Shown here in pieces: positions 38,584 to 49,112 of a DNA stretch of 64,000 bases. The DNA lies in assembly GCA_963819655.1 (NCBI GenBank), contig CAWFXA010000002.1:1216001-1280000 (forward strand). Direction: 5' to 3'. Origin of the DNA: an uncultured Chloroflexia bacterium (GTDB taxonomy: Bacteria > Chloroflexota > Limnocylindria > Limnocylindrales > CSP1-4). The translations under genes were made by a program, and so were the position numbers. Under the pieces are notes generated by a model that was not told the origin of the DNA, searched no databases, and saw only the letters and a program-made list of their open reading frames with translations. How positions within the stretch are numbered: the stretch's first letter is position 1; each line of letters opens with the position of its first letter.

Positions 38584-40806
38584 ATGGGACGATACGACGG
38601 TATGACTGCGCGCCTCCGACACCGCGTCGTTGCTGAAACGCGCCCGGAGCGGGCTCCCGGCCAAGGGCGCCCGTCGGTCTTTCGGCGCCTGCTCGCCGCG
38701 CCCGACGCGGCGCGGCAGCTGGAGGAGGAGCCGGACCGCCTGATCGGCCTCGAATCGGAGCTAGCTGAGCGGCTCGACAGCGTCCTCGGCATCGCCGAGC
38801 GTCTCGCCGCGTCTCACGATCGGGAGGACCTGTTCCGCACGATCGTGGACGAGACGAAACGGGCGCTCCGCGTCGACTACGTCACGATCAGGATCCTCCG
38901 CGACGACCAGCTGCACGTCGCCGCGTGGGCGGGTCTGCCCGACGACATCGCCGCCGCCCTGCCGGCGTTCGGCGTCGGTGAGGGCTGGGTCGGCGAAGTG
39001 CTGCGGACCGGTCGATTCGCAGCCTGGACGGACACGCGCACCGATCGGCGCTACGGCTCGAGCAGATACGACGGCATCCTCGAGTTCGCGGGCGATCTCA
39101 TCGCGCCGCTCGTGCATCACGACCGCGTGATCGGGGCGCTGTCGGCGGTGACGCGCGAGCCGCGCGAGTGGACCGACGGCGACGTGGCCTTCCTCACGAC
39201 GCTTGCGACCCATGCCGCGATCGCACTGACCAACGCCGAGCTGTTCGAGCAGACCGAGGCGAAGGCCGCGCAGCTGACCGTTCTCCAGGCGGCCTCCGGT
39301 CGACTCAACCGAGCGACATCGGTCGAGGCGGTCGGGCGAGCACTCGTCGAGGAGACCCGCCGGATCATCGACTACCACAACGCGCGCGTGTACCTCATCG
39401 AGTTGCCCGATCAGGTCGTGCCCATCGCCTTCGAGGGTCGGGTCGGCGCCTACGAGCATGTCGATCTCGACCTGCTGCGCTGCCGTCTCGGCGAGGGCTT
39501 CACCGGCTGGGTCGCGCAGTACGGCGAGCCGCTCCTGATCAACGACGCGAACCGAGATCCGCGAGGGGTGACGATCACCGGCACTGAGGACATCGACGAA
39601 TCGATGCTCGTGGTCCCGATGCTGTACGACGAGGAAACCGTCGGTGTGATCACTCTTTCGAAGCTTGGCCTGGACGGCTTCGACGGCGACGACCTGCGGC
39701 TGCTGGCGATCCTTGCGGACCACGCTGCGACCGCGCTCGAGACCGCGCGCCTTCTGACCCGGAGCCAGGAGCTCGCACTGGAGCTGCGCCGGATGCTCGA
39801 CATGAGCGGCGAGCTCTCGGAGAGCCTCGACCCGCGCCAGGTGGCGAACCTGATGGCGGGCCACCTCGCGCGCGCGATGGGCGTCGATGAATGCGCGATC
39901 AGCTACTGGGATCGACCGTCCGGGCGCGTCGAATCGCTCGGCTATCACCCGCCGCTGCACGAGATCGAGCCCTATTTCGAAGTCGACGGCTTCCCAGAGA
40001 CGCTGCGCGTCCTCGAGCGGCAGGTCACGGTCATCATCGACGCCGAGGACCCACGTGCCGATCCGGCCGAGGTCGCCCTCCTGCGGAGCGACGGGATCCG
40101 CATGCTGGTGATGCTGCCGTTGGTCGCCAAGGGCCAGTCGATCGGCCTCGTCGAACTGTTCTCACGGACGGAGGCGCGCTGGGACGCCCAGCGCCTCGAG
40201 GTCGCGCGGACGATGGCCAACGAAGCGGCCATGGCGCTCGAGAATGCGCGTCTGTACGAGGACGCGCGCAAGCGCGCGGACCGCGACCCGTTGACCGGGT
40301 TCTTCAACCACCGCTATATGCACGAGCGGATGGGGGAGGAGGTCGTCCGCTCCCAGCGCGGCAAGCGCCCGCTGAGCGTGATGATGCTCGACCTCGACGA
40401 CTTCAAACTCGTGAACGACACGTTCGGTCACCTGTTCGGCGACCGAGTCCTGACCTGGGCGGCCGAGCTGATCAAGGCGACGCTTCGTGCGTCGGACGTG
40501 CCGGCCCGGTACGGCGGGGACGAGTTCGCCGTGATCCTGCCCGATACCGATGCTGCCGATGCGGCCCACGCCGCCGAGCGGATCCTCGAGACCTTCCGCG
40601 ATCGGCCCTTCATCGGCGAGCAGCGCGGGCCGGTCCCGATCGCGGCCTCGATCGGCGTGGCAACGTTCCCGACCGACGGCCGGACTGCGACCGAGCTGAT
40701 CGCCTGCGCCGACCTGAGGCTCTACCAGGTCAAGCGCGACGGCGGTCATGGCCGCGCGGCAGGCACGGACGGGTCGACCGAGGATCCGGGCGGGGCATCG
40801 GCGTAA
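38584..40806 (+). CDS. Triple-GAF diguanylate cyclase
   Basis: Three GAF repeats each ending in A.A..(N)A.L; DPLTG..N.R; I-site RASD and GGDEF; start may be 38602. Confidence 0.92.
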   Translation: MGRYDGMTARLRHRVVAETRPERAPGQGRPSVFRRLLAAPDAARQLEEEPDRLIGLESELAERLDSVLGIAERLAASHDREDLFRTIVDETKRALRVDYVTIRILRDDQLHVAAWAGLPDDIAAALPAFGVGEGWVGEVLRTGRFAAWTDTRTDRRYGSSRYDGILEFAGDLIAPLVHHDRVIGALSAVTREPREWTDGDVAFLTTLATHAAIALTNAELFEQTEAKAAQLTVLQAASGRLNRATSVEAVGRALVEETRRIIDYHNARVYLIELPDQVVPIAFEGRVGAYEHVDLDLLRCRLGEGFTGWVAQYGEPLLINDANRDPRGVTITGTEDIDESMLVVPMLYDEETVGVITLSKLGLDGFDGDDLRLLAILADHAATALETARLLTRSQELALELRRMLDMSGELSESLDPRQVANLMAGHLARAMGVDECAISYWDRPSGRVESLGYHPPLHEIEPYFEVDGFPETLRVLERQVTVIIDAEDPRADPAEVALLRSDGIRMLVMLPLVAKGQSIGLVELFSRTEARWDAQRLEVARTMANEAAMALENARLYEDARKRADRDPLTGFFNHRYMHERMGEEVVRSQRGKRPLSVMMLDLDDFKLVNDTFGHLFGDRVLTWAAELIKATLRASDVPARYGGDEFAVILPDTDAADAAHAAERILETFRDRPFIGEQRGPVPIAASIGVATFPTDGRTATELIACADLRLYQVKRDGGHGRAAGTDGSTEDPGGASA

Positions 40807-40902
40807 CCCGACCAGGACGGAAGTACCGGGTCGCATCCGCCATCGGTACCATCCGCCAGTAGTGGACGCGGAGGCGTCTGGGCCGCATCCTTAACTCCCG
40901 AG

Positions 40903-42105
40903 TTGACCCCATCCCCCCCGCGCCCCGCGCGCCCCGTGGACCCTTCGGATCGCCGGATCCGCCGGTCCTGGTGGACCTTCTCCCTCGCGTTCCTACTTGT
41001 CGCCGTCGTGGTTCTCCTCCGCGCGCTCGCGGTGGATGCGACGCTCGCCGACCGGCTCCTGCTTGTCGTCGCCCTGGTCGCCGGTTTCGCGGCGTTCATC
41101 CACGGCTCCGCCGTCTCGGATCTCGGTGCCCGGCGGCGTGACGAGGCCGAGTCGTTCGCGCGGATCCTGAGTGGCCTGTCGCGCTCGGTGTCGCCCGACG
41201 CCATCGTCGACGCGATCGCCGAGGATCTCGGCCAGGCCACGGCCGCGGACCACGTTGGGGTGGTGCGGCGAGCCGAGGACGACCGGGAGCTCGCCGCGCA
41301 CCTCGTGAGCCTCCGCCCCGGCGTCCCGGACCACTCGACGCCGCTCCCGCTCGGCGACCTGGAGGACGAGATCCGGGGGCGACCGGCCACGCCGTCCGAG
41401 GCTGCCGACCGGATCGCCCGCCGCGTGCGCGACGTGTATGGGCTCGGCCAGGTCATGGCGGCCCCGCTGATGACCGCCGACGGCATCGTCGGTGCGCTCG
41501 TCATCTCGCGGCGGGTCGGCTCGACATGGCCGGAGTCCACGCGCCGGATCCTCGGTGGTGCGGCGGTGGAGGCGTCGGCCGCCCTCGCCCGGGCCTACTC
41601 CCACCGCGATGCTGAGGCGCGCGCCTCGACCGATTCGCTCACCGGCCTGCCCAACCGGCGCTACTTCGACGAGTTCGTCGGGCTGCTGGCACAACGCCGC
41701 CGCGCCGGCGACGCGGTCGGCATCCTCATGGTGGATATCGACCGCTTCAAGGCCCTCAACGACAAGCACGGGCATGCGACCGGCGACGACGTCCTGCGCG
41801 CCGTGGCCGGAGCGATCGTGTCCGCAGTGCGCGAGGACGACGTGCCGGCGCGCTTCGGCGGGGAGGAATTCGTCGTCCTGTTGCGCAACCCAGGGCCGGG
41901 GGTCGCGGTGGAGGTCGGCGAGCGGATCCGTGCCGCGGTCCGCGGGCTCGACCTGCGACGGCTCGGGGTTCCGGCGCCGAGCGTCTCGGTCGGCGTCGCG
42001 GTGGCGACGAGCCCGGACGAGGCCATCGCGTCCCTCATCGACGTCGCCGACCAGGCGCTCTATCGTGCGAAGCGCGCCGGTCGCGATCGCGTGGTCGCCG
42101 CGTAG
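40903..42105 (+). CDS. Membrane-anchored GAF-GGDEF diguanylate cyclase
   Basis: Two TM helices, GAF-like segment, DSLTGLPNRR, I-site REDD and GGEEF, ALYRAK.AGR; start uncertain. Confidence 0.9.
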   Translation: MTPSPPRPARPVDPSDRRIRRSWWTFSLAFLLVAVVVLLRALAVDATLADRLLLVVALVAGFAAFIHGSAVSDLGARRRDEAESFARILSGLSRSVSPDAIVDAIAEDLGQATAADHVGVVRRAEDDRELAAHLVSLRPGVPDHSTPLPLGDLEDEIRGRPATPSEAADRIARRVRDVYGLGQVMAAPLMTADGIVGALVISRRVGSTWPESTRRILGGAAVEASAALARAYSHRDAEARASTDSLTGLPNRRYFDEFVGLLAQRRRAGDAVGILMVDIDRFKALNDKHGHATGDDVLRAVAGAIVSAVREDDVPARFGGEEFVVLLRNPGPGVAVEVGERIRAAVRGLDLRRLGVPAPSVSVGVAVATSPDEAIASLIDVADQALYRAKRAGRDRVVAA

Positions 42106-42323: not shown

Positions 42324-44340
42324 ATGCCCCGCCGCGCCGCCCGCACCGATCCGCCGCCCGACGCCCGCCGCGAGGCCGAGCTGGCCGTCGAGGAGCCGGA
42401 CATCGAGGGGCCGGCGACGGGCGCCGACGACCCCGACCTCGAACCCGCCGACCTCGAACCCGCCGACCTTGACCTTGCCGACGCTGACCTGCGGCCGGAC
42501 GACGAGGACGACGAGCCCGACCGCCAGCTGACGAACGGCGACCTCGCGCGGATCTTCCACGACATCGGCGACATGCTCGAGGTCAAGGGCGAGCTGTCGT
42601 TCAAGACCGTCGCCTATCACCGCGCCGCGGACGCGATCGGGCGCAGCCCGGTCGACCTCGTCGCGGCCTACCGCGACGGCCAGGCACCCAAGATCCCCGG
42701 CGTCGGGCCGCGATCAGCGACAAGATCGCCGAGTTCGCCACGACCGGCCGGATGGCCTACTACGACAAGCTCGTCGCTGAGGTGCCGCCGAGCCTCGTCG
42801 ATCTGCTCCGCATCCCGGGTCTCGGTCCGAAGACCGTCCGCCAGATCTGGAAGGACCTCGGGATCGTGACGATCGACGACCTCCGCAGGGCCGCCGAAGC
42901 CGGCACGCTGCGCGAGCTGCGGGGCCTCTCCGAGCGGACCGAGCAGCTCATCCTCGAGGGGATCGCGCGTCTCGAATCCACGCCCGCGGCGCATGCTCCT
43001 CCACCGGGCGGAAGTCATCGATCCTCGGCCTGATGGAGGCCCTGACGGAGGCACCCGGCCTGCGCTCGATCGAGCCCGCCGGCTCGTTCCGGCGCCGTCG
43101 CGAGACGATCGGCGACCTCGACCTGCTCGCCGAGACCGACGACGGCCCCGGGCTCGATCGAGCGGTTCACGACGCTCGGGCATCGTGGACCAGGTCGCTC
43201 AACAAGGGCGGCTACAAGGCGGCCGTCCAGCTGCTGCGCGGCCCGCAGGTCGACCTGATGGTCATGCCGCCCGGCGAGGCCGGCACGTACCTCATCCACT
43301 TCACCGGCTCGAAGGAGCACAACGTCCGGCTCCGCGAGCGCGCCCGCGACCAGGGCTGGAGCCTGTCGGAGAAGGGCTTCCTGCGGATCGGCGAGGACGG
43401 CGAGCCGCTGACCGGCGACGCCGCCGAGCTGCGGACGTTCGCCACGGAGGAGGAGGCGTACGCGTTCCTCGACCTGCCGTTCATCGAGCCCGAGCTGCGC
43501 GAGGACGAGGGCGAGATCGAGGCGGCGCTCGCCGGCACGCTCCCGCACGCTCATCACGCTCGCCGACCTGCGCGGCGACCTCCACAGCCACTCGGACTGG
43601 TCCGACGGCGACGCACGCGATCGAGGTCATGGCCGAGACCGCGCGCCGTCGCGGCTACGCCTACCAGGTCCTGACCGACCACTCGCCAGTCGCTGGCCAT
43701 CGCCCGCGGCCTGGCGCCCGATCGGGTCGAGCAGCAGCGGGCGATCATCGCCGCGCTCAACGCGCGCTTCGCGGCGGAGGAGGCGGACGGCACCGCGCCG
43801 CCCGAGACGCCGCCCGAGGGCTTCCGACTGCTCCACGGCTGCGAGCTCGAGGTCCGCGCCGATGGCGCCCTCGACTACGACGACGAGCTGCTCGCGCGGT
43901 TCGACCTCGTCGTCGCGTCGGTCCACGTCGTCGCGCCGCCAGCCGCGCGCCGAGCTGACGCGGCGGACGCTCAACGCGATCCGCAGCCCCGCACGTCGAC
44001 GTCATCGCCCACCCGTCCGGCCGGATGATCGGGACGCGCGACGACCTCGACCTCGACTGGGACGCGGTCTACGCCGAGGCGGCGCGGACCGGCACGGCGC
44101 TCGAGATGAACGGGTCGCCCCACCGGCTCGACCTCGCGGTCGAGCGCGCGCGGCGGGCGGTCGAGGCTGGGCTGCGTGCTGTCGATCGACTCCGACGCGC
44201 ACAAGATCGCCGAGCTCGACTACCTGCGCTGGGGCATCACCCAGGCACGCCGGGCGTGGGTCGAGCCGGCACGCGTCCTCAACACGCGCTCCCGGGCCGA
44301 CCTCCTCGCCTGGGTCGCGGACAAGCCGGAGCGGGTGTGA
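42324..44340 (+). CDS. polX: DNA polymerase X / PHP 3'-5' exonuclease (multiple frameshifts)
   Basis: AYHRAA, IPG.G HhH motifs, AGSFRR.RETIGDLD, VDL, HFTGSKEHN, IEPELRED; PHP motifs DLHSHS.WSDG, TDHS, GCE, IAHP, EMN, DSDAH. Confidence 0.9.
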
Positions 44341-45358: not shown

Positions 45359-46218
45359 GTGACCTTCCCCGACGTCGAGACGACCGCCCAGAGTCCCGTC
45401 AACCTGACCCGGACCAAGCGCCAGCTGGCCGAGCAGGCCATCGCCCAGGCCACCGCCGCGCAGTGGGCGGAGGCGGCCGACGACCAACCGCAAGCTGCTC
45501 GAGCTCGGCCCGGACGCCGAGGCGGAGAACCGCCTGGCCAAGGCGCTCTGGGAGCTCGGCCTGCTCGCCGAGGCGCGCGAGCACTACCAGACGGCGCTCG
45601 CGCTCGATCCGACGAACCGGATCGCCGAGCGCAACATCGACCGGCTCAAGGTCCTCCTCATCGCCGCCGGCGAGCAAGACCGTCCCGGCGCAGGAGGGCA
45701 GCAAGGCCCCGGTCAGCATCTTCGTCGAGGAGACCGGCAAGACCGGGTTCGCCTTCCTGACCGACCTCGCCACCCCCAAGGAGCTGGCCCAGGTCAACCC
45801 GGGCGACGCCGTCGAGCTGACGCCCGAGGGCAACCGGCTCATCGCGTTCAGCAACGGGATGCGCATCGGCGTCGTCGAGCCGCGCGTCGCGGCCCGCCTG
45901 CTCAAGCTCATCGCCGACGGCAACAAGTACGCGGCCGGCGTCACGAGCCTCGGCGACAAGGACGTCCGGCTGATCATCCGCGAGATCTTCCAGGACCCGC
46001 GCAACTACGGCAAGGTCAGCTTCCCGACCGCGGCCAAGTCGACCGACCTGCGGCCGTACACGAAGGGCACCCTCGTCCGCGAGGAGATGGAGCTCGAGGA
46101 GGACCTCGAGGACGACGAGGAGGACGAGGAGATCGAGGACCTCGATCGCGTCCTGCCGCCGGAGTCGACCACGGACGAGGCGTTCGAAGAGGAGCCGGAC
46201 GAGCTCGACGAGGCCTGA
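45359..46218 (+). CDS. TPR protein with HIRAN-like C-terminal domain and acidic tail (frameshifted)
   Basis: TPR-like AENRLAKALWELG...A..HY..AL.LDP.N.IA.RN; FVEETGKT; PGDAVEL.PE...G.RIG.VEP..A.RL..LI..G.KY; Glu/Asp-rich tail. Confidence 0.75.
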
Positions 46219-46298
46219 TCCTCGTCGCCGGGACCGGCGGGCGGGAATGTCCGCCCCCGGTCAGCGGCTCTTCCCATGTGGTCTAGCATCGTGCCGAG

Positions 46299-49112
46299 AT
46301 GACGGTCCGCGTCCACACCTCGCGCGCCGATGTCGGCGGGAACCTGCCCGTCTTCGAGCGCCTCGCACCGGCGCCGCCGCCCGCCCTGCTCGCCGCCCGG
46401 ATCGAGGCCCACACCGGGCCCGGTGACGTCGTCGCCGACCTCGCGGGCCGCGGCGGCTGGGTGGCCCGGGCGGCCGTCGATCGCCAGCGCCGCGCCGTCT
46501 CGATCGAGTCGAGCCCGCTGACGCGGATGCTCGCCGAGGTCGTCCTGCGCCCGCCGGACGTGCGTCACCTCGACGCCGCGTTCCAGGGGATGTCCGCGTC
46601 GCCGCGCGGCGAGTCGAGCCTCAAGGTCTCGATCGGCGACCTGTTCTCGACGCGCTGTTCGACCTGCGGCCGGATCCTCGTCGCCGACGAGTTCACCTGG
46701 TCGAACGAGGCCGACGGCCCGCCCCGACCGATCGCGCGCCACTATCGCTGCACGGTCTGTCGCGACATGCGCGGCGGGACGGAGGCGCGCCACGGCGAGC
46801 TCGAGCCCGACGACCTCGCGCGAGCGCTGAACGACACGGAGGGCGCCACGGCGCGCGCCTGGGCACGCGACCGCTTCCCCGTGGTCGACGGCGCGCCCGA
46901 CCTCGTCGACGAGCTGCTCGACCTCCACACGCCCCGCCAGCTCGTGGCACTGACCGCGATCATGGATCGGATCGAGGCCGACCTGCGGGCCGCCCCGGTG
47001 CTCGCGGCGCTCCGCCTCGCGCTCCTCCATACGCTCATCCCGTCGAGCCGGCTCGCGACCGGCGCCGGCCGCGGTGGCGCGTTGCGGGTCGCGGGCGGAC
47101 ACGTCCGGCTGCCGGCCGCGACCCAGTGGCGCGAGCGCAACCCGTGGCTGGCGTTCGAGGAAGGGTTCCGGACAGTCCGCGGCTTCGTCCAGCATCTCGA
47201 GGGCGGTGCGCTGGGTCCGCTCCAGGCGCGGCTCGGCGAGGACCTGCAGGCGCTCGCCGAGGGATCCGCGACCGCCGTCCTGACGATCGCCAGCCCGTCC
47301 GCTGTGCGTGCGCTCAGCGACGGCGACGGCTTTGGCCGGGCAGCCGGATCCACACCGTCCGTCCGTCTGGTCCTCGGCCAACCGCCGATGCGTCCGAGCC
47401 TGGACCGCCTCGCCGTCGCCTACCACGGGACGGCATGGACGCTGGGCCGCGAGGCCGCTGCCCTGCTTCCGATCGACGCTCTCGCCGACGCGTCGCTGCG
47501 TGCCCCGTGGTCGTGGCAGGCTGTCACGATCGGCCGCGCGCTGGCGGCGGTGGAACCGTCGATGGCCAGGGACGGGCGGGTCGTCCAGCTGGTCGACGGC
47601 GGGGCCGAGTCGCTCGCGGCGGTGGCGATCGGCGCGGCGTCGGCAGGCTACCGCGTGGTCGTCGCGCGACAGTCCGACCCGGATGACGTCGGTGCCGGCG
47701 TCATCGAGATGGTGCCACCCGGCGTCGCCGTGCCGACGGGGCCCCGGACGCGTGCGAACGTCGCCCTGCCGTACCCGTCCGCTGCGGCGCCCGATGTGGA
47801 CGTTGCCCCCGGACGCGGCCTGTTCGCACCGCCGGAGCGGTTCGATCAGCGACCGTTCTCGGCGAGCGATGCCGCCAAGGTCGTGACCGAGGCCGCCGTC
47901 GAGACGCTGCGGGCCCGCGGCGAACCCGCTCGCACCGAGCGGCTGTTCGGCGAGATCCTCGTCGGTCTCGACCGGTCGGGACACCTGCGCAGGCTGTCGA
48001 CCGGCGCCCGGCCCACGGAGACGCCGTCTCGCGCGGACGACGGCCGAGCACCGACGCCGCCCGCCCAGCTGGACCCGCCCGCCCGGCCGGAGTCGCCTGT
48101 CGAGCCCGACGCCCCACCCTCCGGCCCGGTCAATGGCCCGGTCGCGGGCGCGACCGCAGAGCAGGCCGAAGGCGCTGGCGGTCCGCCGGTCGCGACGCGG
48201 CGCGCGACGGCTGTGCCCGACGCCGCCCCGGACCCCGTCGAGCGCCTGCTGGCACTCATCCGCGACGAGCTCGCCCGACCCGACCAGCGCCGACTGACGG
48301 AGATCGAACCCGGTCGCTGGTGGCTGGCGGAACAATCCGATCGCGCTGCCGCCGCCCCGCCGCTCGCGGACCGCGTCGAGTGGGCGGTCTTCAGCCTCCT
48401 GTCGACGGCCGGGCCGCTGTCCGAGGCCGCGTTCTACGACCGCATCGCCACGCTGTTCACCGGGCACGACCTGCCAGACGAGACGCTCGTGCGAGCGTGT
48501 CTCGAGAGCTACCGCAGCCTGGCCAGCACTCCCGACCACCTCGTCACCGGCGACGACCTGCTCCGCCGCAGTCACGAGCACACCGAGCTGCTGGCAGCCA
48601 TCACCGAGGCGGGCCACCGGCTCGGGCTCCGGGTCTGGCTGGCCGAGCGCGAGCAGGCGCGCCGGCTGGGCCGAGGCCACCTCGGCGACATGCTCGACGA
48701 ACGCGAGCGCGGCGCCTACCTCGGGAGCATCGGCCGCGCCGTCGACGCGCTCGCGGAGGTCGATGCGATCTGGTACATCCGCGGCAAGGCCGCCCTGCTG
48801 TTCGAGGTGGAATGGACCGCGATGCTCGGCGAGCCGCTGCTGCGGCGGCACGCCCGGATCGGTGCGGACGAGCGCTTCGTCCGGTTCCTCGTGGTCGCCC
48901 CCGAGCGGACCGACCTGATCCGCCACAAGCTCGAACGGTCGCCGCTCCTCCGCGCCGCGATGGACGAGCACGGCTGGAACCTGATCAAGTGGGACCACCT
49001 GCGCACGTTCCTCTCGGCCGAGCGCCCCGACCTCGACGACCTCGAGCCGTTGCTCGGGCTCGATCCGGTGGTCGAGCGCGGCGGCGAGCAGATGCCGCTG
49101 TTCGGCGGCTGA
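46299..49112 (+). CDS. Degenerate N6-adenine MTase-like / Zn-ribbon / winged-helix / PD-(D/E)XK-like fusion protein
   Basis: GDVVADLAGRGG...RRAVSIESSP (motif I-like), CSTC...CTVC, VLGQPP (motif IV-like), C-terminal H..L...G..LG..VW...VDAIW...LFEVE. Confidence 0.7.
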   Translation: MTVRVHTSRADVGGNLPVFERLAPAPPPALLAARIEAHTGPGDVVADLAGRGGWVARAAVDRQRRAVSIESSPLTRMLAEVVLRPPDVRHLDAAFQGMSASPRGESSLKVSIGDLFSTRCSTCGRILVADEFTWSNEADGPPRPIARHYRCTVCRDMRGGTEARHGELEPDDLARALNDTEGATARAWARDRFPVVDGAPDLVDELLDLHTPRQLVALTAIMDRIEADLRAAPVLAALRLALLHTLIPSSRLATGAGRGGALRVAGGHVRLPAATQWRERNPWLAFEEGFRTVRGFVQHLEGGALGPLQARLGEDLQALAEGSATAVLTIASPSAVRALSDGDGFGRAAGSTPSVRLVLGQPPMRPSLDRLAVAYHGTAWTLGREAAALLPIDALADASLRAPWSWQAVTIGRALAAVEPSMARDGRVVQLVDGGAESLAAVAIGAASAGYRVVVARQSDPDDVGAGVIEMVPPGVAVPTGPRTRANVALPYPSAAAPDVDVAPGRGLFAPPERFDQRPFSASDAAKVVTEAAVETLRARGEPARTERLFGEILVGLDRSGHLRRLSTGARPTETPSRADDGRAPTPPAQLDPPARPESPVEPDAPPSGPVNGPVAGATAEQAEGAGGPPVATRRATAVPDAAPDPVERLLALIRDELARPDQRRLTEIEPGRWWLAEQSDRAAAAPPLADRVEWAVFSLLSTAGPLSEAAFYDRIATLFTGHDLPDETLVRACLESYRSLASTPDHLVTGDDLLRRSHEHTELLAAITEAGHRLGLRVWLAEREQARRLGRGHLGDMLDERERGAYLGSIGRAVDALAEVDAIWYIRGKAALLFEVEWTAMLGEPLLRRHARIGADERFVRFLVVAPERTDLIRHKLERSPLLRAAMDEHGWNLIKWDHLRTFLSAERPDLDDLEPLLGLDPVVERGGEQMPLFGG

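Follow-up and report, generated by a model that had tools for sequence, protein, structure and literature searches.

A degenerate DNA methylase joined to a restriction-type nuclease, with a candidate clamp-binding tail, in a vertically inherited gene of Limnocylindria

Type IIG/IIC enzymes and methylase+Mrr fusions carry the modules for methylation and cleavage in one chain; their methylase motifs are active, and as defence genes they have a patchy distribution. In enzymes of the MmeI type, the nuclease comes first and the methylase belongs to the gamma class. R.NmeDI from Neisseria meningitidis is described as a 351-amino-acid (aa) type II restriction enzyme (PMC2095814), and NucS/EndoMS as a mismatch endonuclease that the clamp activates in Actinobacteria and Archaea (PMC6159521; PMC8228993). 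Here we analyse a gene of 937 aa at 46299..49112 on the forward strand of a 64,000-nucleotide stretch of DNA, the window, from an uncultured Chloroflexia bacterium of the class Limnocylindria (GCA_963819655.1, contig CAWFXA010000002.1, positions 1,216,001 to 1,280,000). A first-pass annotation made from the sequence of the window had described its product as a domesticated, type IIG-like fusion of a degenerate DNA methyltransferase with a nuclease fold. Our results suggest, with about an even chance of being right, that the protein is recruited by the clamp and acts as a DNA-binding endonuclease in replication-coupled repair, with its dead methylase reading the DNA.

The open reading frame (ORF) at 46299-49112 is a real gene of Chloroflexota that is inherited vertically. 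As first annotated, it runs without interruption to a stop codon at 49110-49112 and has host-like codon usage, with GC contents of 0.79/0.55/0.91 at the three codon positions, the pattern of the window's other genes; GC is ~70% throughout the window and 72% in the gene region. A 997-aa frame on the minus strand (46005-48998), whose translation is rich in Arg, Gly, Ala and Ser, is an antisense artefact of high-GC DNA and not a gene. The genome (3.49 Mb in 3 contigs, 91% complete) holds the gene in one copy. All further coordinates in the window refer to the forward strand.

We built a full-length AlphaFold2 model on an alignment of 67 relatives (mean pLDDT 87.3, pTM 0.85; residues 482-511 and 589-638 disordered). 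Residues 11-476 form a class I Rossmann-type core of the kind that binds S-adenosylmethionine (SAM), matching CbiT, aTrm11, Trm14, TrmN, TrmI, RsmD, PrmA and PrmC at VIA-align Z 14-17 over ~160-170 residues (16-17 over ~167 for the core matches). The first part of this core, defined by profile and fold matches (beta1, helix and beta2, residues 14-85; 46338..46553), contains the eroded motif I DLAGRGG (46437-46457) and retains E70 at the end of beta2. The second part, defined by the model and fold matches (residues 326-476; 47274..47726), contains the degenerate motif IV GQPPM (47376-47390). Between beta2 and beta3, the secondary structure of the model and the invariant columns place an insertion of ~240 residues (86-325; 46554..47273). 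It carries a Zn ribbon of the Cys4 type (46647-46766) as well as a helical module with the invariant residues R192, R213, E279 and W283, and it is homologous to the corresponding part of intact Zn-ribbon methylases.

The profile of the 67 relatives matched, in the motif I region, M.RsrI (1nw8, E 3.4e-6) and TTHA0409 (2zie, 8.4e-6) and, more weakly, MboIIA, PvuII and CcrM; a second weak stretch aligned LVLGQPPv to LIICDPPY. PF01555 was found in 16 of the 67 relatives (best E 5e-8), whereas the query itself stays below the Pfam gathering threshold for it (0 families at E up to 1), and local Pfam and NCBIfam searches returned no family for the whole protein or for four pieces of it (Pfam E up to 1). 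A single-protein sequence search of the PDB gave only chance gp41 coiled-coil matches at E > 0.6, and Foldseek against the PDB, run with the whole and the C-terminal model, returned none at E 0.001 or better. Weak PADLOC matches are MTase_II at residues 27-71 and 35-98 (E 0.003-0.005) and REase_II at residues 760-849 (E 7.3e-5). Because the family profile reaches N6/N4 DNA methylases and the model matches the corresponding folds, the motifs quoted in the first-pass annotation are more than chance look-alikes. All of them lie where they had been placed: DLAGRGG at 47-53, CSTC at 120-123, CTVC at 151-154, GQPPM at 360-364, ETLRARGEP at ~535-543, PLADRVE...VRACLESY at 688-738 and VDAIW...FEVEW at 821-839.

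An alignment of 23 full-length representatives was used to count residues at the catalytic positions. The motif I Asp is kept in 20/23 rows, but the canonical first Gly is replaced almost throughout (R in 16, Q in 3, H in 3, G in 1) and the second Gly is kept in 9/23; the window's D-L-A-G-R-G-G thus departs from (D/E)xFxGxG. In motif IV, the two prolines are kept in 18/23 and 22/23 rows, whereas D and N do not occur at all at the first residue (Q in 9, E in 5, S in 3, A in 3, V in 2, R in 1) and an aromatic residue occupies the fourth position in just 1/23, so that GQPPM likewise deviates from (D/N/S)PP(Y/F/W). As judged from these column counts, the methylase chemistry is degenerate across the family, not just in the window's protein. 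The erosion noted in the first-pass annotation is thus family-wide, and the orthologues are not ordinary active methylases with DPPY. The Zn ribbon (CSTC/CTVC), by contrast, is intact as annotated, with all four cysteines invariant in 23/23.

The C-terminal half was also modelled separately (residues 640-937, pLDDT 93.4) and consists of two domains. The first is a winged helix (residues 685-752; 48351..48554) that matches the cullin WHB, Rpa2 WH and Hel308 WH domains at VIA-align Z 6-7.9. The second (residues 753-910; 48555..49028) is a PD-(D/E)XK nuclease domain of the NmeDI type, recognised by VIA-align, Foldseek, PADLOC and stand-alone relatives. Residues 751-928 align with the R.BspD6I small subunit (2p14, Z 7.9, 139 residues aligned), N.BspD6I (2ewf, Z 7.1), Hna (9yhn, Z 7.0), EcoT38I (7e8r, 6.3) and NucS (2vld, 6.0), with BstEII, HindIII, SdaI and BsaWI below these, and the top Foldseek matches of the C-terminal model are MspJI, N.BspD6I and FokI at E 0.015-0.03 (MspJI 0.015). 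The scores are middling, and the fold is assigned because the match list is consistent and agrees with the sequence evidence. Close homologues, up to 96% identical, carry a precomputed match to PF27126, named NmeDI_C by the protein atlas (Pfam 38.1). VIA-align thus recovered both the methyltransferase and the nuclease fold, and the PD-(D/E)XK-like pattern that had been read from the C-terminal letters corresponds to restriction-type nucleases. Of the two winged-helix-like segments proposed in the first-pass annotation, the second is the winged helix described above, while the model shows the first (~522-568) as three helices.

The key residues of the nuclease domain are R757, H761, E803, D822, E836-V-E838, R870 and K897. 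Their conservation among the 23 representatives is high for R757 (23), E803 (22), D822 (22), W825 (23) and R870 (23), and lower for H761 (18), E836 (16), E838 (19) and K897 (18). Stand-alone proteins of 363-375 aa from other Chloroflexota match the domain at E 1e-15 to 1e-16 and have the pattern H.E...D.xW...FE[VI]E in common with the window's protein. The motif reads ExE in place of the textbook ExK, with K897 and R870 as candidate equivalents of the Lys. Because the pattern is shared with stand-alone nucleases, the window's protein appears to have a functional motif despite the ExE. Two such stand-alone relatives lie at L152:6308-7435 and L153:6850-7941; their N-terminal domain appeared EVE/PUA-like, by eye only. 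In modification-dependent restriction enzymes, EVE/PUA-like domains occur as readers.

Bacterial proteins of replication and repair dock on the beta clamp through terminal peptides of the QL(S/D)LF type. The window's protein ends in ...GEQMPLFGG, which places QMPLF (49089..49103) two residues from the end, in a low-confidence region of the model. We considered this a motif of the beta-clamp-binding type on the basis of its rarity in the genome and its conservation in relatives. Q[LM]x[LM]F within the last 12 residues occurs in 1 of the 2154 coding-like ORFs (at least 100 aa) of the genome, against 0.18 expected from the frequency of the motif inside proteins. The looser pattern Q[LMIV]x[LMI][FLW] stands within the last 14 residues of 154/178 relatives longer than 700 aa; the 24 exceptions comprise 16 from one cluster ending in QQLAFRW, 6 frame-shifted records, 1 partial record and 1 protein with the motif 14 residues from the end. 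Q931 is present in 22/23 representatives, and the gene for the clamp, DnaN, was identified in the window's genome (C2:467234-468349). The tail of the window's protein resembles peptides that dock on the replication clamp.

The distribution of the gene suggests stable, vertical inheritance. A search with the single protein matched 38/41 relatives, namely 22/24 genomes of the same genus, 15/16 of the sister family (~1.1 Mb genomes) and 16/16 of the high-quality genomes, and the three relatives that did not match are 59%, 69% and 88% complete. Among 301 sampled Chloroflexota genomes, 242 gave some match, mostly weak ones to ordinary methylases, while full-length orthologues (E < 1e-60) were found in 66 genomes from nine families: 17 in the window's own family, f1 (its genome included), 15/15 in f3, 19/20 in f9, 7 in f33, two each in f5, f14 and f18, and one each in f21 and f34. 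Closed genomes are among those of f9 and f33. This sample, like those used for MutL and NucS below, includes the unpublished genomes G220, G078, G295, G201 and G360, none of which has a full-length orthologue or is the sole basis of any conclusion here. In a pattern scan of the genomes of 185,579 species, 480 stretches coding for a relative came to light. Of the top 80, one is a contig titled Saccharimonadales and all others are titled Chloroflexota; homologous records likewise bear titles with Candidatus Limnocylindria/Limnocylindrales and other Chloroflexota. In a representative library, 1145 clusters matched at E 0.001 or better, many of them fragments or frame-shifted records, which were excluded from the alignments. 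Searches of 72,556 plasmids, of 50,697 phage records and of the IMG/VR contigs turned up no relatives. Since the gene is near-universal in the genus and the sister family, syntenic and single-copy, we regard it as a core gene that is inherited vertically. The earlier term 'domesticated' is supported by these data, and the phyletic pattern, with f3 and f9 nearly complete and synteny across the class, is vertical rather than patchy.

The origin of the parts can be traced to restriction-modification systems. The N-terminal profile of the family (positions 9-436 of 480) matches proteins of 778-949 aa from other Chloroflexota at E 1e-18 to 1e-35, and these have DPFMG(A/G)GT, several CxxC pairs and TDPP(Y/F). 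The closest clusters in the protein atlas beyond the family itself are PF01555 + NmeDI_C proteins of ~830-900 aa from Bacteroidota and Methanobacteriota, together with methylase+Mrr fusions. Because the profile matches intact Zn-ribbon methylases and the atlas neighbours combine methylase and nuclease, the protein is, on sequence evidence, a descendant of restriction-modification-type modules. The Zn-ribbon N6/N4 methylases (DUF1156/COG1743-like, PF01555) represent a homologous module with the same order of motif I, Cys-rich insertion and motif IV, but they have the canonical motifs just given and no clamp-type tail, whereas DLAGRGG, GQPPM and the tail are present here. The DUF1156 motif itself (PF06634) was not matched in the query in the Pfam search. 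In one f5 locus, a 693-aa DUF1156 + N6_N4_Mtase protein (L108:10619-12700) adjoins the orthologue; it is an intact representative of what is presumed to be the ancestral type of methylase.

Each of the other described systems resembles the protein in part. To the nucleases of the R.NmeDI type, it is linked by PF27126 on close homologues, the REase_II match, the PD-(D/E)XK fold and the motif of the stand-alone relatives; R.NmeDI is described as standing alone, in a mobile restriction-modification system that brings its own methylases (PMC2095814), whereas in the window's protein the domain forms the C-terminal part of a core protein that is encoded on the chromosome and ends in a clamp-type tail. 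With single-chain methylase-nuclease enzymes, it has in common that the modules of both activities lie in one chain. The label 'type IIG-like' nevertheless appears loose, given that the order here is motif I, Zn-ribbon insertion, motif IV and C-terminal nuclease, and that a type IIG enzyme has an active methylase in the nuclease chain whereas here the catalytic loop is degenerate throughout the family, inheritance is vertical and the tail is of the clamp type. NucS/EndoMS likewise combines a PD-(D/E)XK nuclease, a separate DNA-recognition domain and the sliding clamp, the clamp part being a prediction in our case, but recognition would here fall to a dead methylase, which differs in fold from the N-domain of NucS, and the chain is four times as large. 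Membership in NucS/EndoMS was rejected, as the genome has no match to NucS_C (PF01939). Literature searches on inactive methyltransferases with nucleases or clamp motifs, on PF27126 and on mismatch repair in Limnocylindria yielded no description of the family.

Taken with the architecture, this descent suggests the following mechanism. The ancestor would have been a Zn-ribbon N6/N4-type DNA methylase fused to an NmeDI-type PD-(D/E)XK nuclease that later became domesticated. The C-terminal motif would dock the protein on the beta sliding clamp, and the dead methylase, the Zn ribbon and the rest of the insertion may form a DNA-recognition module, possibly one that flips bases like its ancestors. 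The winged helix and the nuclease would then cut DNA at or near the recognised site. Such a protein would act as an endonuclease in replication-coupled repair or in DNA processing, analogous but not related to the clamp-tethered NucS/EndoMS and MutL. None of the results points specifically to a reading of modified or damaged bases, as the first-pass annotation had proposed for the dead methylase. If the mechanism is right, a restriction-modification enzyme has taken on housekeeping duties at the replisome, and its dead methylase is reused as a DNA reader; this would be a clear case of domestication from defence to maintenance and a new architecture among the few clamp-tethered nucleases.

Genome maintenance rather than phage defence is the most likely role of the protein, because the tail is of the clamp type and the gene is vertically inherited, syntenic and single-copy. 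The option of a chromosome-maintenance function, raised in the first-pass annotation, gains support from this tail and from DNA-repair neighbours. In Limnocylindria, the neighbour of this kind is PolX, encoded upstream. In both f18 loci (2/2), the orthologue stands head-to-tail with two genes that follow directly downstream on the same strand (L109:4402-10458, L110:4457-10357), the first for an MrfA-type helicase (DEAD, WHD_HRQ1 and MrfA Zn-binding domain) and the second for an MrfB-type RNase_H_2+TPR exonuclease. This arrangement looks like an operon with a known DNA-repair pair: MrfAB is described as a mitomycin-C repair pair of Bacillus subtilis (PMC11194089), and a preprint assigns MrfB-linked YprA helicases to the branch of their family that acts in DNA repair (10.1101/2025.09.15.676423). 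Neighbours of this kind are suggestive but do not occur in all lineages.

Several observations weigh against a clamp-recruited endonuclease. Repair neighbours are lineage-specific, and other lineages have unrelated ones (a CAP-domain protein, an amylase, HD and HIT proteins, and the DUF1156 methylase in one case). The strict motif stands at the tail of no other ORF in the genome and hence at that of none of its known clamp partners, so that the use of this motif in the phylum is not calibrated. The structural matches of the nuclease domain remain at Z < 8 with no Foldseek match at E <= 0.001, and no Lys of the classic (D/E)XK motif was identified. Finally, we compared 15 orthologues from nine families by alignment and profile search. 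The nuclease core is intact in f1, f3, f21, f34, f5 and f18, but not alignable or lost in f9 (3/3 loci) and f33 (2/2), and half-lost in the streamlined f2 (2/2), where the D is kept while FEVEW has become FCEVI, R870 is replaced by L and K897 by A. The Zn ribbon is kept in 15/15 of these samples, and the tail motif is kept in f1, f3, f9, f33, f21, f34 and f5, altered in f18 and internal (QLDLT) in f2. Since the lineages that lost the nuclease still have the protein with its Zn ribbon and, for the most part, its tail, the function common to the whole family may not need cutting. The annotation's fusion of a degenerate methylase with a nuclease fold accordingly holds for the window's protein, and the nuclease half does not extend to the whole family. 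The sister lineages with the protein but without the nuclease core represent a natural experiment on which part matters.

This variation is the main argument for an alternative that we consider possible, though rather unlikely: that the protein works without catalysis, as a clamp-associated factor that binds DNA or serves as a scaffold and in which both enzyme sites are relics. Its conserved task would be DNA binding at the replisome through the Zn ribbon, the insertion and the winged helix, possibly to mark, organise or regulate newly replicated DNA. The universal Zn-ribbon cysteines, the tail Q[LM]x[LM][FL] kept in most lineage samples, the degenerate methylase motifs everywhere, the three lineages with a lost or half-lost nuclease core and the retention of the gene in 15/16 streamlined genomes of ~1.1 Mb would all fit such a factor. 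Against it stands the conservation of D...ExE, R757, E803 and R870 in the six families with an intact core, where these residues match those of the stand-alone nucleases. As the window's protein has all of them, we argue that catalysis is under selection in its lineage.

A bolder version of the endonuclease proposal, which we regard as a long shot, is that in Limnocylindria the protein supplies the nuclease that is missing for error correction after replication. The dead methylase would flip and inspect bases or read the methylation of the parental strand, leading to an incision at mismatches or one that discriminates between strands, and the neighbouring PolX and TPR/acidic-tail proteins (see below) would fill and process the gap. 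MutH and SeqA are examples of proteins that read the methylation state of the parental strand. The window's genome has no match to MutL_C, NucS_C or MutS_I; its one MutS_V match lies in a 784-aa frame that is taken to be MutS2-like, judged by length only. MutL_C was found in 258/301 Chloroflexota genomes, as opposed to 0/16 in f1, 0/3 in f2 and 0/15 in f3. In the class sample, which includes the window's genome, MutL was detected in 0/35 genomes, and MutS_I in 0/61 sampled Limnocylindria genomes. NucS_C gave weak partial matches in small ORFs, with 11/61 passing the cut-off and one in a 267-aa frame. That neither MutS1 nor MutL was found in the sampled Limnocylindria permits a role in mismatch repair and does not show it. 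We rejected the idea that the family is present only where MutL is absent, as f9, f33, f5, f14, f18 and f21 have both, and complementarity with MutL also fails in the other direction, since f11 and genus g26 have neither. A 2026 paper on streamlined Limnocylindraceae reports the loss of base-excision glycosylases and leaves MutS/MutL unmentioned (PMC13212565). The host class is abundant in soil and freshwater, and because its sampled genomes show no MutS1/MutL, the protein would, if a replication-coupled role is real, be a testable candidate for replication fidelity in the class.

It is very unlikely that the protein still transfers methyl groups, or works as some other enzyme that uses SAM or a nucleotide, through an unorthodox active site, perhaps with RNA or protein rather than DNA as its substrate. 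The best core matches, at Z 14-17, are indeed tRNA m2G/m1A methylases, RsmD, PrmA and PrmC. In class I methyltransferases, an acidic residue at the end of beta2 binds the SAM ribose, and this residue (E70 in the window's protein) is kept in 20/23 representatives. In addition, f3 has a canonical DPWAGTGW loop, yet its motif IV reads SPPP/SPRV. Against activity stand the motif IV positions that are never D/N and only once aromatic, the replacement of the first motif I Gly by R, Q or H in 22/23, the failure of the query to reach any Pfam or NCBIfam methylase model, and the loss of the beta2 acid in f9, f33 and f2, the same lineages in which the nuclease core is lost or half-lost.

That the protein is an active anti-phage restriction enzyme, either single-chain and type II-like or modification-dependent and type IV-like, is scarcely probable: its modules come from restriction-modification stock with weak REase_II and MTase_II matches in PADLOC, its atlas neighbours are methylase+NmeDI_C and methylase+Mrr proteins and its stand-alone relatives may have an EVE/PUA-like domain, but it is a single-copy core gene with synteny conserved across the class, it has no relatives in the plasmids, phages and viral contigs searched and no cognate active methylase beside it in the window, its clamp-type tail is conserved, and it is retained in genomes of ~1.1 Mb.

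Two further segments of the protein lie between the methyltransferase core and the winged helix. The model shows a three-helix module (residues 520-570; 47856..48008) with a conserved RGEP motif, in which R540, E542 and P543 are conserved. It is followed by a disordered Pro/Ala-rich linker (residues 571-640; 48009..48218; pLDDT < 50 over 589-638) that is variable in length and absent from distant relatives.

Rhizosphere metatranscriptome contigs from two libraries, 95-99% alike, overlie the gene within 46254-48940, for example at 47120-47656 with 19 differences and at 48742-48892 with 1 difference. They give a weak hint that close relatives transcribe the gene; carry-over of DNA is possible. 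The sequencing runs that hold similar sequence all share at most 20% of the sampled words and represent contigs of relatives, naming no habitat and giving no proof of transcription.

The gene order in Limnocylindria is GGDEF, GGDEF, PolX, membrane protein, TPR/acidic-tail protein, methylase-nuclease gene and DUF885. Of 102 loci compared, a large part of which have short flanks, 83 show the TPR/acidic partner, 91 DUF885 and 56-58 pieces of PolX. The family X DNA polymerase gene (PolX, with PHP domain) lies at 42528..44316, split over three frames, and was identified by tblastn and by Pfam on the window pieces and on intact homologues, which have HHH_8, thumb and PHP domains. Illumina-derived contigs of relatives lack one base at each of 43613, 43687, 43984-43987 and 44532 in this region, and the frame breaks are more likely indel errors of the 3-contig long-read assembly than signs of a decayed gene. 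The TPR protein immediately upstream (45486..46218) was located by tblastn of the intact homologues from L113/L114; it has a TPR N-terminus, a conserved C-terminal domain without an assigned family and an acidic tail. It is spread over two frames, and at each of the positions 45675 and 45482 a base is missing from contigs of relatives. Because the frame changes near 45660-45700, the 317-aa product given by the ORF caller has a spurious N-terminus. A HIRAN-like nature of the C-terminal domain, our own reading of the sequence, was rejected, as no Pfam match supports it. Upstream of PolX, two consecutive GAF-GGDEF diguanylate-cyclase genes (38584-42105) are syntenic in about half of the related loci.

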